Positions 10,199-15,790 of a stretch of 64,000 nucleotides of DNA are shown here, in pieces. The DNA is from an uncultured Acidobacteriota bacterium (GTDB lineage: Bacteria; Acidobacteriota; Thermoanaerobaculia; Multivoradales; SZUA-115). The DNA lies in the NCBI GenBank assembly GCA_963805975.1, contig CAWDVR010000005.1, positions 32,001 to 96,000 of the forward strand, read 5' to 3'. A program made the translations under genes and the position numbers. Every line of letters begins with the position of its first letter. Position 1 is the first letter of the stretch. The notes beneath the pieces are model-generated. The model ran no database searches and was not told the DNA's origin. It saw nothing but the letters and a program-made list of their open reading frames with translations.

Positions 10199-12148
10199 AT
10201 GCTTCAGTGGACGCGCGACAACCTCAAGCATCTCAAGTGGACTCTCTGGCCGGTGATCCTCGCCTTCGTGGCCGGCTTTGTCGTCATTCCCCAGTTCGAC
10301 AGCGGTGGTGGCGGCGACGATCGGGTGGCGACGATCGGCGACGAGACCATCACCCAGGCCGAGTTCGAGCGCGAGTATCGCAATCTCCAGGATCAGTACC
10401 GGAGCTCGTTGGGCGAGCGCTTCACGCCCGAGCTCGCCCAGCAGTTCCGCCTGCCGCTGCAGGCGATCAACCAGCTCGCGGCCGAGAAGCTGATGGTGGA
10501 AGAGGCGCGGCGCGCGGGCCTCACGGTGACGGATGCCGAGCTCCGCCAGCTCCTCATCGACATGCCGGGACTGCAGGACGAGAGCGGCCGGTTCATCGGC
10601 TCCAGGCGCTACGCGGAGGTGCTCAGGGCGAACGGCTACCCTTCGCCCGCGGCTTTCGAGAGCGGGCTGCGCGAGAACCTGCTCGGCCAGAAGCTGCAAG
10701 CGGCGCTGGCCGCCGGCGTCTACATCCCGGACGCTGCGGTCGAGGCGCGCTATCGGCGGGACGTGGAGAAAGCCCAGATCCGCTACGTAGAGGTCCCCGG
10801 CTCCCGCTTCGCCGCCGATGTGAAGGTCGAGCCCGAGGAGGTCAAGTCCTTCTTCGACGCCCGGCGCGAGGAATACCGCCGCCCCGAGCAGCGCGTGGTC
10901 AGCTATCTGCTCGTCGACGCCAACCGCCTGGGCGCGACGCTCGAGGTCCCACAGTCGGAGATCGCCGACTTCTACGGACAGAACCAGGCCGACTACTCGC
11001 GAGAGGAGCAGGTCCACGCCCGGCACATCCTGATCAAGGTGGACGACAACCGCAGCGACGAGGCGGCGAAGGCCTTCGCCGCGGAGGTGCGCCGGCGGCT
11101 CGAGGGCGGGGCCGATTTCGCGGCCGTGGCCAAGGAGGTGTCCGAGGACCCCGGCTCGAAGCCGCGCGGCGGGGACCTCGGCTACCTGTCCCGCAACGGC
11201 GTGGTCCCGGAGTTCGGCGAGGCCGCCTTCTCCGCCACTCCCAACCAGCTCGTGGGCCCGGTGAAGTCCTCTCTCGGCTACCACCTGCTGGAGGTGCTCG
11301 ACCATCGCCCCGGCGGCCAGCGGCCGCTCGAGGAGGTCTCGAACCAGATCCGCCAGCGATTGCAGAACGAGCGCGCCCAGGCGCAGGCCGAGCAGAAGGC
11401 GGCGGCGCTCGCCGAGCGCATCGGGAAAGAGAAGCTCACCTCCGACGAGCAGTGGAAGGGGCTCACCGAGGGCGCGCCCTACATCACGGTCGAGAAGTCT
11501 CCGGCCTTCGGCCTGCAGGACAACGTGCCCGGCGTCGGTCGCGCGCCGGAGTTCCTGAGCACCGCCTTCGAGCTCGAGAAGGGCGAGGTCTCCGACCCCG
11601 TCCGGCTGCCTCGCGGCTGGGCGATCCTGCGCCTCGACGAGGCTCTCCCGCCTCGCCTTCCCGAGCTGACCGAGGTCGAGACGCAGGTCCGCCAGGCGCT
11701 CAACAAGCAGAAGCAGGACGGTCTCGCTCTCTCCCGCCTGGCGGCGGCGCGCCGGGAGCTCGATGCCGGCCAGAGCCTCGAGCAGGTGGCGAGCGGGCTC
11801 GGCGTCGAGGTCAAGGACAGCGGCGAGTTCGGCCATGGCCAGCCGGTCGCCGGGCTGGGCCCCAACCCCGGGTTGACCGAGGCGGCGCTCGCTCTCTCGC
11901 CCGGACAGACCGGCGGTCCGGTCGCCTCGCGGCTGGGCGCGGTCCTCTTTCAGGTGACCGAGCGCAAGAGCTGGGACCCGCAGGAGTTCGCCCGCGAGAA
12001 GAACTCCACCCGGCGGCAGTTGGAGGGCGAGCAGGCGCAGCGCCTCCTCGCCTCGAGGATCGAGAGCCGCATTCGCGAGGATCTGGACTTCAGCAAGCGG
12101 TTCATCGCCGCCTACGGGGCGCCTCCCGAGCCGGCGCAGAAGCGTTGA
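10199..12148 (+). CDS. SurA N-terminal / parvulin PPIase (PpiD-like)
   Basis: N-terminal TM, VHARHILIK, SEDPGSKPRGGDLG, GYHLLEV. Confidence 0.88.
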   Translation: MLQWTRDNLKHLKWTLWPVILAFVAGFVVIPQFDSGGGGDDRVATIGDETITQAEFEREYRNLQDQYRSSLGERFTPELAQQFRLPLQAINQLAAEKLMVEEARRAGLTVTDAELRQLLIDMPGLQDESGRFIGSRRYAEVLRANGYPSPAAFESGLRENLLGQKLQAALAAGVYIPDAAVEARYRRDVEKAQIRYVEVPGSRFAADVKVEPEEVKSFFDARREEYRRPEQRVVSYLLVDANRLGATLEVPQSEIADFYGQNQADYSREEQVHARHILIKVDDNRSDEAAKAFAAEVRRRLEGGADFAAVAKEVSEDPGSKPRGGDLGYLSRNGVVPEFGEAAFSATPNQLVGPVKSSLGYHLLEVLDHRPGGQRPLEEVSNQIRQRLQNERAQAQAEQKAAALAERIGKEKLTSDEQWKGLTEGAPYITVEKSPAFGLQDNVPGVGRAPEFLSTAFELEKGEVSDPVRLPRGWAILRLDEALPPRLPELTEVETQVRQALNKQKQDGLALSRLAAARRELDAGQSLEQVASGLGVEVKDSGEFGHGQPVAGLGPNPGLTEAALALSPGQTGGPVASRLGAVLFQVTERKSWDPQEFAREKNSTRRQLEGEQAQRLLASRIESRIREDLDFSKRFIAAYGAPPEPAQKR

Positions 12149-12738
12149 TCGGCTATCTCAAGGGCGTACCGCTCGCGGTGCGGCCGGACTCCGTCCTGCT
12201 CGACGTGGGTGGCGTCGGGTACGCCCTTTCGATTCCCCTCTCGACCTACTACGCCCTGGAGCGCGCGGGGGAAGGGCGGCCCGTGGGGCTCTATGTCCAC
12301 ACCCATCTGCGGGAGGACGAGATCAGCCTGTACGGCTTCTCGACGGAGCTCGAGAAGCTGCTCTTCGAACGGCTGATCGCGGTGTCGGGCGTCGGCCCTC
12401 GGCTCGCCCGCGTGCTCCTCTCCGGCATGCCGCCGGAGGAGGTCATCGCCGCTCTCGCCGCCGGCGACGCGACGCGCCTGACACGCATCCCCGGCGTCGG
12501 CCGCAAGACCGCCGAGCGGCTGGTGCTGGAGCTTGCGGACAAGATTCGGGAGCTGGGCCTCCCTCTACAGGCCCCACCCGCCATGGCGGCCGACGGCGAG
12601 GTGATCTCGGCGCTCGTCAACCTCGGCTACAAGATCGCCCTCGCCGAGAAGGCGGTGGCCGAGGCGCGGCGGCTGGCACCGGACGCCGAGTTCCACCAGA
12701 TCCTGAGAGCGAGCCTGCAGCGGCTGGCTCGCGGCTGA
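12145..12738 (+). CDS. ruvA: Holliday junction branch migration protein RuvA
   Basis: TTG start overlapping upstream stop; IGYLKG, DVGGVGY, LYGF, IPGVGRKTAERLVLEL, ALVNLGY. Confidence 0.95.
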   Translation: MIGYLKGVPLAVRPDSVLLDVGGVGYALSIPLSTYYALERAGEGRPVGLYVHTHLREDEISLYGFSTELEKLLFERLIAVSGVGPRLARVLLSGMPPEEVIAALAAGDATRLTRIPGVGRKTAERLVLELADKIRELGLPLQAPPAMAADGEVISALVNLGYKIALAEKAVAEARRLAPDAEFHQILRASLQRLARG

Positions 12739-12967
12739 GAGCGCTGCTTTTCCGAGGTCCCCACCTCGGCTGGTCCCGGAGTTACTTTTTCTCGACGGCA
12801 GGTCTTATACTCTTGTGTGCAGACATGGAGATGCCTTCGGAGTCTTCGCGGGTCGACCGGCGCCCAATGACCTGTCCCTGCTCGGTCGAGGCCCCGCACC
12901 TCTGAGGCATCAACGTCGGTGTCGGAACATTTCCGGCTGAACCCGGCTTCCTCATGGAGGGCTGGCC

Positions 12968-13063
12968 ATGCGTCTCCTGCTCTGGTTGCTTTCGCTGCTC
13001 GAAAATCCTCTCACCCCGTTCCGCGCCATCGAGGAGGGCTCCCTCAACGACCCCGATGGTTAG
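12968..13063 (+). CDS. Small peptide MRLLLWLLSLLENPLTPFRAIEEGSLNDPDG (31 aa), candidate signalling or precursor peptide
   Basis: GGAGG at 12956-12960, 7 nt before ATG; hydrophobic N-terminus, acidic DPDG C-terminus; below ORF-track cutoff. Confidence 0.6.
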   Translation: MRLLLWLLSLLENPLTPFRAIEEGSLNDPDG

Positions 13064-13132
13064 TGTCGCGCCCTACCCAGGCTCGCGAAATGGCACCTCG
13101 CGAGCGACTCCTGAGGTATAGTCGTGACAGTC

Positions 13133-13414
13133 ATGTCTGGGATCTACGCCGCGCGAGCGCGCGGCAGGAGCGCGACCGAGGGCAAGGCGGAAGGCCCCTT
13201 CGTCGAGTTCCTGCGCACGGTTCAGCCGAAGGCTACTCGGCTGATGGAGAGTTACTGCCTGGCGCCCGAGGCCACGTCCTCGATCTTTCACGACACGCTC
13301 GAAACTCTGGTGTGGAAGTGGGAGACGGTGCGAGATCGCGAGAGCTGGCTGCTGGCGGTCCTGCAACGCAAATGTGAGCTTCTCGCCCGCCCGCCCGGCG
13401 AGGTGCGGCGGTGA
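13133..13414 (+). CDS. Small protein resembling an isolated, degenerate ECF sigma region 2
   Basis: FVEFLRTVQPK...IFHDTLETLVWKWETVRDRESWLLAVLQRKC follows the sigma2 pattern; no sigma4; stop overlaps next start (GTGA). Confidence 0.55.
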   Translation: MSGIYAARARGRSATEGKAEGPFVEFLRTVQPKATRLMESYCLAPEATSSIFHDTLETLVWKWETVRDRESWLLAVLQRKCELLARPPGEVRR

Positions 13415-14703
13415 GCGGAGATCGATCTCTCCCACCGGAGCCTACACCTTTGGTGCCCGCGCTCCGGGCCCTCCCGGCGCCGCGCTCGACCGCACCTGCC
13501 GACGATCCCGCGGTCGACTACAACGCCGTCTTCGACCGGGTCTTTGCCGAGGCCGTGCGCCACGAGCGCAGCCTGGCTATGGAACGGGTGGAGGCGCTGG
13601 CGCTCGCCACCGAGCTCGAGGGCCAGCCGCCACGGCGGCGGCGCCTCCTGGTACGCAACAGCCGTCGCTACCAGACCTGGTCCATCTGCCAGGGCCTCAT
13701 CGACCGCAGCCACCAGCTCGGCTTCAACGAGCCCCAGGAAGGCCTTGACCTGGCCGAGCTCGCCACCGAGGTGGCCGAGCGGCTCGACGCCAGGCACTAC
13801 GGACCGATCCAGGTCCGGGACATGAAAGCCGCCGCCTGGAGCCAGTACGCCAACGCCCAGCGCGTAGTGTCCGACTTGCGTAAGGCGGACGAGGCGTTCG
13901 GCATCGCGGAGCACTTCCTGGCTGGCGGTACGGGCGACCTCCTGGCGCTCGCCCGCTTCTACGACCTCAAGGCGTCGCTGCGGCGCGCGCAGCGGCGGTT
14001 CGAGGAGAGCGAGGCCCTGCTGGGCTCGGCCATCGACCTCTATCGCCAGCTCCACGATTCCCGCCGCGAGGGCGGCGCGCTGATCAAGCTGGCGGCCGTC
14101 CGCGACCTGCAGGGCCGGCTCGAGAGCGCCATCGAGCTCGTGCAGCAAGGCTCCAGCCTGCTCGACCCGGTGGCCGACCTGCGCCAGATCAACCTGGCGC
14201 AGGCCAACCTCATCAGTCATCTCGCCGATGCCGGCCGCTGCCTCGAGGCCCAGGTCCTGCTGTCGCGCGCACGCCGGGCGCAAGTGGCCGAGGGGGACGC
14301 GATCCCGCTGCTGCGCTTGCGCTGGGTGGAAGGCAAGATCGCCGCCGGACTCGGCCACACCGCGCTCGCCGAGCGTGCCTTCAAGGACGCGCGGCAGGGC
14401 TTCGTCGACAACGGCCTGGGCTACGACGCGGCGCTGGTCTCGCTCGAGCTCGCCGAGCTCTTTGCGCGCGCCGGCCGCGCTGGCGAGATGAAGGTCCTCG
14501 CTCTCGAGATGCTGCCCATCTTCCGCTCCCGCGACGTGCACCGGGAGGCCCTCGCCGCGCTTCTGGTGCTGCGCCAGGCGATCGAGGCCGAGGCCGCCAC
14601 CACGGCGGTGATCGGTGAGGTGCGCACCTTCCTGCGCCAGGCCCGCGACAACCCGCGCCTGCGCTACGAGGGATCGGTATCCACCGTGGGCGCCACCGGT
14701 TGA
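13411..14703 (+). CDS. Tetratricopeptide-repeat-like helical protein
   Basis: Repeated helical motifs ([56 protein letters not shown]). Confidence 0.75.

Positions 14704-14764: not shown

Positions 14765-15790
<1,026 letters not shown>

Follow-up and report, generated by a model that had tools for sequence, protein, structure and literature searches.

Genes and signals between ruvA and ruvB

The window analysed here is a stretch of 64,000 nt in which ruvA and ruvB are separated by 2,026 nt holding three ORFs, each on the + strand (Table 1): a peptide gene, a gene for a protein confined to sigma region 2 (sigma2-only) and a TPR gene. An earlier note on this DNA had described three co-oriented ORFs splitting ruvA from ruvB, and this arrangement is real, the Pfam matches of the flanks and the ORF coordinates being in agreement. 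The strong ribosome-binding site assigned to the 31-aa ORF is likewise borne out by the GGAGGG before its ATG, and the coupling of the 430-aa ORF to the sigma2 ORF by a 4-nt overlap of the sigma2 stop and the TPR start (GTGA). The GC content of the module matches that of the rest of the genome (70% GC).

Table 1. Features of the ruvA-ruvB region, in window positions
Feature	Position	Strand	Remarks
ruvA	12145..12738	+	Flank, outside the module; Pfam RuvA_N, HHH_5 and RuvA_C above cut-off
Candidate -10 TATACT for the peptide gene	12806..12811	+	156 nt 5' of the peptide ATG; rare hexamer
Shine-Dalgarno GGAGGG of the peptide gene	12956..12961	+	6 nt 5' of the ATG (from sequence)
Peptide ORF, 31 aa	12968..13063	+	C-terminal G-x3-DPDG; orthologs at the same locus
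Conserved -10 TATAGT	13117..13122	+	10 nt 5' of the sigma2 ATG
Sigma2-only ORF, 93 aa	13133..13414	+	Aligned to family ECF by hhalign
TPR ORF, 430 aa	13411..14703	+	TPR_12; TPR superhelix model
ruvB	14765..15790	+	Flank, 61 nt 3' of the TPR ORF; Pfam RuvB_N/C above cut-off

The TATACT at 12806, previously proposed as a -10, is present, rare (110 copies on both strands of the 5.36 Mb genome) and plausible in that role, but a consensus scan called no full promoter and found no -35 with it. Of 180 TATA[ACG]T sites, 115 are located no more than 250 nt upstream of a called gene, and TA[TG]ACT occurs 158-162 nt upstream of three of the six other peptide genes of the clade described below (distances by eye), close to the spacing of 156 nt found here. 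A second -10, the TATAGT at 13117, was overlooked by the earlier note and is better conserved than TATACT: TAnnnT precedes the sigma2 start by 10-11 nt in all five ruvA-ruvB orthologs that have the peptide and the TPR gene, and therefore the sigma2-TPR pair likely has its own near-leaderless transcript. In contrast to the structured leader that had been supposed, the leader folds no better than shuffled sequences (z -1.14, 26 of 200 shuffles as good), and no Rfam family comes near its cut-off. A weak 7-bp hairpin about 30 nt 5' of the peptide start (12919-12938) is common to five leaders (the window and L029, L006, L011 and L026), whose alignment contains only one covarying pair.

A scan between the TPR ORF and ruvB returned zero terminator-like sites. 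In one soil RNA run, only 0.06 of the words were matched; in contigs of a near relative, portions of the TPR gene are covered and its end is joined to ruvB, no contig lies over the peptide or sigma2 genes, and such contigs cannot show transcription. A functional tie to Holliday-junction repair was rejected, position being the sole evidence for it. In G017, ruvA and ruvB are 149 nt apart and the module is absent. At L133:2085-2807 (G023), no ruvB is found within 1.5 kb after ruvA and a convergent gene, which we take to be rnpA-like, stands there instead, so the ruvA-ruvB adjacency is not universal within the order.

A stripped clade of the module

In a quick, unfinished tree, the window copy falls in a group of seven loci from one family (SH-aLRT 91). 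All seven carry a peptide of 31-35 aa, a sigma2-only protein and a TPR protein devoid of the ZAS anti-sigma domain. In the window copy, all three working ends are missing: the export signal (as judged by the crude rule given below), the ZAS domain and sigma4/DAED. The module is kept at ruvA-ruvB in five of the eight family genomes (G000, G001, G004, G005 and G007; ruvA of the G005 locus is on a different contig), while the remaining three have a sigma fragment and no peptide, either alone at ruvA-ruvB as an 86-aa ORF (G002 and G003) or on a contig that ends just after sigma2 (G006). Peptide orthologs of 31-35 aa are present in four relatives at the same locus and at two paralogous loci. Four genera share the conserved three-gene layout, and a duplicate copy, beside a presumably ntrY-like gene in G005 and G007, has kept all three parts.

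Compared with G001, rough dN/dS values from this one genome pair are 0.15 for ruvA and 0.13 for ruvB, and higher for all three module genes (about 0.25 for the peptide, about 0.38 for sigma2 and 0.38 for TPR). As judged from the sequences, the peptide, sigma2 and TPR genes are retained under purifying selection. The RuvA+RuvB species tree leaves G002, G003 and G006 unresolved (44% bootstrap), so that one loss is indistinguishable from two. Module carriers are located on both sides of the family-tree root, so that it is simpler to assume that peptide and receptor were lost jointly, which again couples the peptide with the receptor. The window clade represents a natural deletion experiment, in which the genes were kept although export signal, anti-sigma domain and sigma4 had been lost together.

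The sigma2-only protein

The earlier label of the 93-aa protein as sigma-region-2-like finds no echo in Pfam or NCBIfam (zero matches) or in a PDB sequence search with its profile (chance matches only). It is upheld by hhalign, which aligns the ORF to a family ECF, itself matching Sigma70_r2 (98.2%, E 5e-14), and by a weak Foldseek search of the model (three helices, pLDDT 85), in which ECF sigma2 domains occupy the top 13 rows, none at E<=0.001. Its derivation from the family ECF is therefore supported at the level of sequence comparison. The ORF ends about 7 aa past sigma2 and thus has only one of the two ECF domains, sigma4 being absent, and the DAED core-binding motif is replaced by ATSS. 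DAED-like motifs are found in three of 30 sigma2-only proteins versus 45 of 63 full ECFs. According to the extract of PMC8999054 at hand, the DAED motif binds RNAP beta-prime, and EcfP, having lost it, cannot work without phosphorylation. The most conserved part of the fragment is the region 2.3-2.4 face, with W61, W63, R67, R69, W72 and R79 invariant in 13/13 sequences.

A pseudogene reading of sigma2 was rejected, as its length and stop are conserved. The fragment persists alone at ruvA-ruvB and as orphans, so it appears to have a role apart from its neighbours. With sigma4 and DAED absent and the fragment surviving where no peptide or TPR gene adjoins it, the direct transcriptional output that had been proposed for it is unlikely. 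Four full family ECFs, three of which are clustered together, and four sigma2-only proteins (two of them orphans) are encoded in this genome. Orphan genes of this type, encoding 81-89 aa with no adjoining TPR or peptide gene, were observed at G000:C5:412395-412640, G000:C4:146601-146870, L109, L112 and L118; in L112 and L118, they are located just upstream of an unrelated-looking ECF/anti-sigma pair. At G000:C1:1249506-1251374, three full family ECF genes lie in tandem beside what we assume to be a metK-like gene, and no TPR or peptide gene was detected nearby. The dispersed ZAS-TPR paralogs likely have these tandem ECFs as their targets. Metagenomes were scanned twice for the sigma2 protein and yielded no confirmed locus. 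The stripped clade suggests that conserved sigma2-only regulators, of which 30 distinct ones were found, form a separate class.

The TPR protein

The TPR-like label of the 430-aa protein holds, the TPR_12 match being barely above the Pfam cut-off (30.7 vs 30.1 bits) and the model being a confident soluble superhelix of about eight helix pairs (pLDDT 91.8). In the fold comparison, which was made by Foldseek alone, eukaryotic LGN/Pins ranks first and, among bacterial proteins, complexes of Rap with peptide match best (4gyo, TM 0.56; Rap matches about 0.55); the fold thus points to a TPR of the peptide-binding type and not to RRNPP in particular. No match was obtained with RRNPP family profiles (Rap, Rgg, NprR, PlcR, PrgX and AimR; fold TM about 0.55), and no RRNPP protein appears among the best 60 of 112 PDB sequence matches. 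Searches with Pfam/NCBIfam-type profiles gave no catalytic-domain match either. Conserved polar residues, including N148, R151, N266, R302 and W305, are twice as frequent on one helix of each pair as on the other, at 22 of 136 positions compared with 11 of 131. Such clustering on alternate helices would be the expected look of a groove for an acidic peptide, the groove face being assumed from TPR geometry. Prediction of a complex between residues 31-424 and the peptide gave a median of 0.27 against a mark of 0.32 (runs 0.27, 0.43 and 0.02), values that speak neither for nor against binding.

ZAS zinc domains follow the spacing H-x(23-26)-H-x3-C-x2-C. This N-terminal domain is absent from the window protein, whereas HxnCxxC is present in 66 of 100 homologs. 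There is no transmembrane segment in the window protein, and a hydrophobic segment is found in 0 of 100 homologs.

The peptide

The window peptide has a hydrophobic to amphipathic N-half and a G-x3-DPDG tail; it starts at the hydrophobic helix, the basic n-region being absent. Judged by hydropathy and charge under a crude rule, in place of SignalP, the peptides of the window clade lack a Sec-type signal, and because of this the exported propeptide of the earlier note has no support in the window copy, in contrast to most family peptides by the same rule. The hydrophobicity of their N-halves would suffice for a route like that of SHP, at most one of the seven has a positive N-terminus, and several are neutral or acidic. 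Signal-less short peptides are also located beside ZAS-like or full-ECF loci (G000:C1:60831-60938, L076:3456-3563 and L073:2159-2245), so that signal loss is not confined to the ruvA-ruvB clade. Of 47 family peptides, 43 have D or N at the third position of the core (core at 13049-13060 in the window). Asn-Gly and Asp-Gly each form succinimide/isoAsp readily; as a speculation, the D and N versions could converge on one aged form, although a tight beta-turn explains them equally.

The peptide-TPR-ECF family

The window copy belongs to a larger family, whose typical member consists of a secreted propeptide and a soluble ZAS-TPR protein, sometimes with a full ECF sigma. About 15 TPR paralogs are present in this Thermoanaerobaculia genome (14 loci by tblastn, 16 by another genome search), and matches occur in 27 of 31 related genomes, with up to 48 per genome. 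In a phylum-wide sample in which six candidates were scored per genome, a match at 1e-30 was obtained for 10 of 251 genomes, every one of them belonging to the class. In total, 6,041 clusters (50% identity) score E<=1e-30; Atlas clusters are unnamed or labelled TPR only and are mostly from Acidobacteriota, and the homologous loci come from Thermoanaerobaculia/Acidobacteriota MAGs.

The earlier note had proposed testing whether the homologs have a conserved neighbouring ORF ending in DP[DNW]G, and the outcome is positive. Among 99 TPR homologs with full flanks, 34 have such a small ORF upstream on the same strand, compared with three downstream on the same strand, zero upstream and one downstream on the opposite strand, and one in a background of 2,467 ordinary genes. 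The 99 homologs derive from 113 TPR ORFs in 98 loci at the top of the match list, so that close homologs are overrepresented, and related loci do not count as independent; at 50% identity, 24 of 64 homolog clusters carry the ORF. About 62 of the 99 have no strict-motif peptide within the tested flanks. With the motif as widened in the course of the analysis (DP[NDHWY]G), only 12 of the 11,932 intergenic small ORFs of this genome have such an end, and seven of the 12 precede a same-strand match to a TPR paralog, at 129-394 nt upstream of it. A Gly at -4, for which no selection was made, is found in 39 of 47 adjacent peptides collected with the wider motif, including that of the window, so the core is G-x3-DP[DN]G. 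The proposal of a peptide, TPR and sigma module is sound regarding the family-wide pairing of peptide with TPR and the layout shared by four genera; as a stand-alone system it gives way to a derived variant of a larger family. The peptide tail is quite probably the ligand for this TPR family.

By the crude rule, 33 of the 47 family peptides look signal-bearing, and nine carry 2-6 cores; the long precursors consist of a signal, a Trp/Leu amphipathic helix, a linker and the core(s). Family-wide, cores do not significantly track receptor identity (a Mantel test gave rho 0.12, a value reached by 176 of 2000 permutations, and 0.08 for pairs below 45% identity). The peptide gene directly adjoins the TPR gene in many paralogs, complete peptide-ECF-ZAS/TPR operons are found in L020, L024 and L138, and no modifying enzyme recurs beside 14 paralogs. 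A profile of 50 paralog N-termini, picked for HxnCxxC, matches ChrR (E 4e-7) and DdvA (E 8e-7), and zf-HC2 is matched in 15 of these 50; by eye, a few homologs show an apparent XRE-type HTH in place of ZAS. Four TPR paralogs of G000 (C1:961897-962679, C3:213167-213901, C4:69130-69828 and C6:96533-97438) have an opposite-strand neighbour resembling, by eye, an XRE-type HTH regulator.

Distant homologs from another order of the same class are located in full ECF and ZAS-TPR operons (L188, L189, L190, L196, L197, L198 and L201, from G289, G305, G319, G332 and G356). By eye, these seven of 19 loci have ORFs of 53-87 aa after the operon, on the same strand or convergent, in which the N-terminus resembles a signal, an amphipathic helix is basic and the tail is in most cases rich in Pro (DPWP, WPRP, PPKP or FPPG) rather than DP[DN]G.

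A literature search of result listings found no description of this family. The name Acidobacteri is absent from the available portion of PMC12700828, and in the part of the PMC7826278 main text at hand it is not tied to such an ECF group, of which the supplements might hold one. As far as searched, the family is unpublished, and the window copy is a real and distinct stripped variant of it.

A possible intracellular modulator and its alternatives

In a typical family member, the propeptide would be exported by Sec, cut to its core, re-imported and bound by the soluble ZAS-TPR protein, which in its peptide-bound state would hold or free an ECF sigma. At the window locus, the signal-less peptide would stay cytoplasmic or bound to the inner membrane, and its G-x3-DP[DN]G tail would likely bind the TPR groove within the producing cell, gating a ZAS-less TPR protein that would in turn hold or release the co-translated sigma2 fragment. 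Once free, the fragment may occupy ZAS domains on the receptor paralogs and thereby release the four full family ECFs of the genome. Neither protein seems capable of activating or blocking transcription as such proteins normally do, and the fragment is retained where its neighbours are absent; we therefore favour, tentatively and at a little under an even chance, an intracellular peptide-gated modulator in which the sigma2 fragment is a decoy for family anti-sigmas, not a working sigma. The peptide-TPR linkage (34 of 99 versus none on the opposite strand upstream) and the unselected Gly agree with it, as do the ChrR/DdvA matches of the ZAS profile, the complete operons of the family and the EcfP precedent for DAED loss, and in DdvA the ZAS binds sigma2 as well as sigma4 (PMC11506125, from an extract). 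Against it, cores do not significantly track receptor identity, most homologs have no strict-motif neighbour, and, with ZAS gone, the TPR protein has no known surface for holding sigma2; the 4-nt overlap might have been left over from an ancestral ECF-anti-sigma operon, and the module dN/dS values exceed those of ruvA and ruvB in the single genome pair. The absence of a signal also depends on the crude rule, and the hydrophobic N-halves would allow a true cell-to-cell circuit along the lines of the earlier note, which we consider unlikely, whereby the peptide would exit by a non-Sec route, return, bind the TPR protein and act via the sigma fragment. The fixed length of 31-35 aa in 7/7 clade peptides, a core identical in motif to that of secreted paralogs and two class-5 peptide-binding proteins in the genome would fit such a circuit, and export of SHP through PptAB offers a precedent (PMC10075063, in part). 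Nevertheless, several clade N-termini differ from the SHPs of the same extract in being neutral or acidic, no exporter or peptidase gene was found at the locus, and the cell is diderm (Omp85 is present), so that two membranes would have to be crossed, twice.

It is quite improbable that the family small proteins are, rather than pheromones, secretion-coupled regulators, cytoplasmic when export stalls, or modified-peptide precursors, with the TPR protein as a chaperone or reader: the layout of signal, amphipathic helix and one to six cores is precursor-like and peptide-receptor covariation is weak, but no modifying enzyme recurs beside the paralogs, the TPR protein matches no catalytic domain and tandem cores are known from Phr propeptides (PMC11343458, in part). 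We give still less weight to the sigma2-only protein being half of a split sigma, recognizing the -10 with a separate sigma4 partner under TPR gating. This would account for the conservation of the 2.3-2.4 face, and RsoA binds its partner through a region 2.3-like segment, as stated in the title of reference 59 of PMC7826278; however, DAED is lost, and the family sigma4 profile detected no short sigma4-only ORF, all 12 matches being at least 191 aa in this 96%-complete genome, from which a distant partner could escape. The least probable reading, and a very improbable one, is that of a decaying relic of a peptide-ECF-anti-sigma operon after deletion of sigma4 and ZAS, kept for a promoter driving ruvB. 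While the three missing ends, the absence of peptide and TPR from the locus in G002 and G003 and the lack of a terminator before ruvB would suit a relic, the frames are open, lengths, starts and overlaps are conserved in four genera, dN/dS is below 1 for all three genes and the G005/G007 duplicate retains its three parts.

Extending the modulator to the whole class, a doubtful picture would be a multi-channel peptide network of Thermoanaerobaculia, in which re-imported G-x3-DP[DN]G peptides control ECFs via ZAS-TPR proteins and this locus, with its non-exported peptide, effector-less receptor and sigma2 decoy, serves as a private cell-internal node that sets the threshold and is fixed in the ruvAB operon. 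If true, this would be a network design so far described only in Gram-positive bacteria. The family also raises the question of how a peptide crosses two membranes and returns.

Comparison with known systems

In PhyR, a sigma-like domain with sigma2- and sigma4-like parts is joined to a receiver domain and titrates the anti-sigma. The PhyR/NepR/EcfG system thereby provides, in a non-transcribing sigma-like domain that titrates an anti-sigma, the role proposed for the sigma2-only protein, and the PhyR-NepR structure 4qic is a weak match in the Foldseek search of the sigma2 model; here, in contrast, sigma2 stands alone and the decoy role is a proposal. The SigO-RsoA system of Bacillus subtilis also includes a free-standing sigma2-bearing polypeptide (PMC7826278, in part), whereas no sigma4-only partner was found here with the family sigma4 profile and the fragment is linked to a TPR protein and a peptide.

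On the anti-sigma side, the zinc domain of the family matches ChrR and DdvA among the ChrR, RsiW and DdvA-DdvS (Myxococcus xanthus) systems. DdvA is the nearest anti-sigma architecture, with a zinc anti-sigma domain joined to TPRs and accompanied by an ECF, although it is membrane-bound: in the extract of PMC11506125, it is a transmembrane protein with a periplasmic TPR-CHAT domain. The family proteins, in contrast, are soluble, have no CHAT and are accompanied by a peptide gene, and the window copy has no ZAS.

The closest overall resemblance is to RRNPP(A) of Bacillota, including Rap-Phr without HTH and Rgg-SHP without a Sec signal, where a small peptide gene adjoins a cytoplasmic TPR protein of 250-500 aa. 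The extract of PMC10075063 lists five features of RRNPP: a propeptide of 10-100 aa, secretion of Sec or SHP type (PptAB), a receptor of 250-500 aa, TPRs, and genes that are direct neighbours. The window module has the propeptide size, the receptor size and the TPRs; its peptide and TPR genes are 347 nt apart with the sigma2 gene between them, and the Sec-type signal that its clade lacks by the crude rule is present by that rule in the 33 of 47 family peptides noted above. By analogy, with three of the five features shared, the module would work like RRNPP, of which it is at most a candidate member. The family further resembles RRNPP(A) in its interchangeable N-terminal effector (ZAS, XRE-HTH or none), its many paralogs per genome, its tandem cores and Rap as the best bacterial fold match, and differs in its diderm Acidobacteriota host, its sigma/anti-sigma output, its G-x3-DP[DN]G core and, at this locus, the sigma2-only gene between peptide and receptor. 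An ECF output is not among the RRNPP types described in the portions of the sources at hand. Should the function of the family match its appearance, intracellular peptide sensing would extend to a diderm phylum, wired to ECF sigmas.
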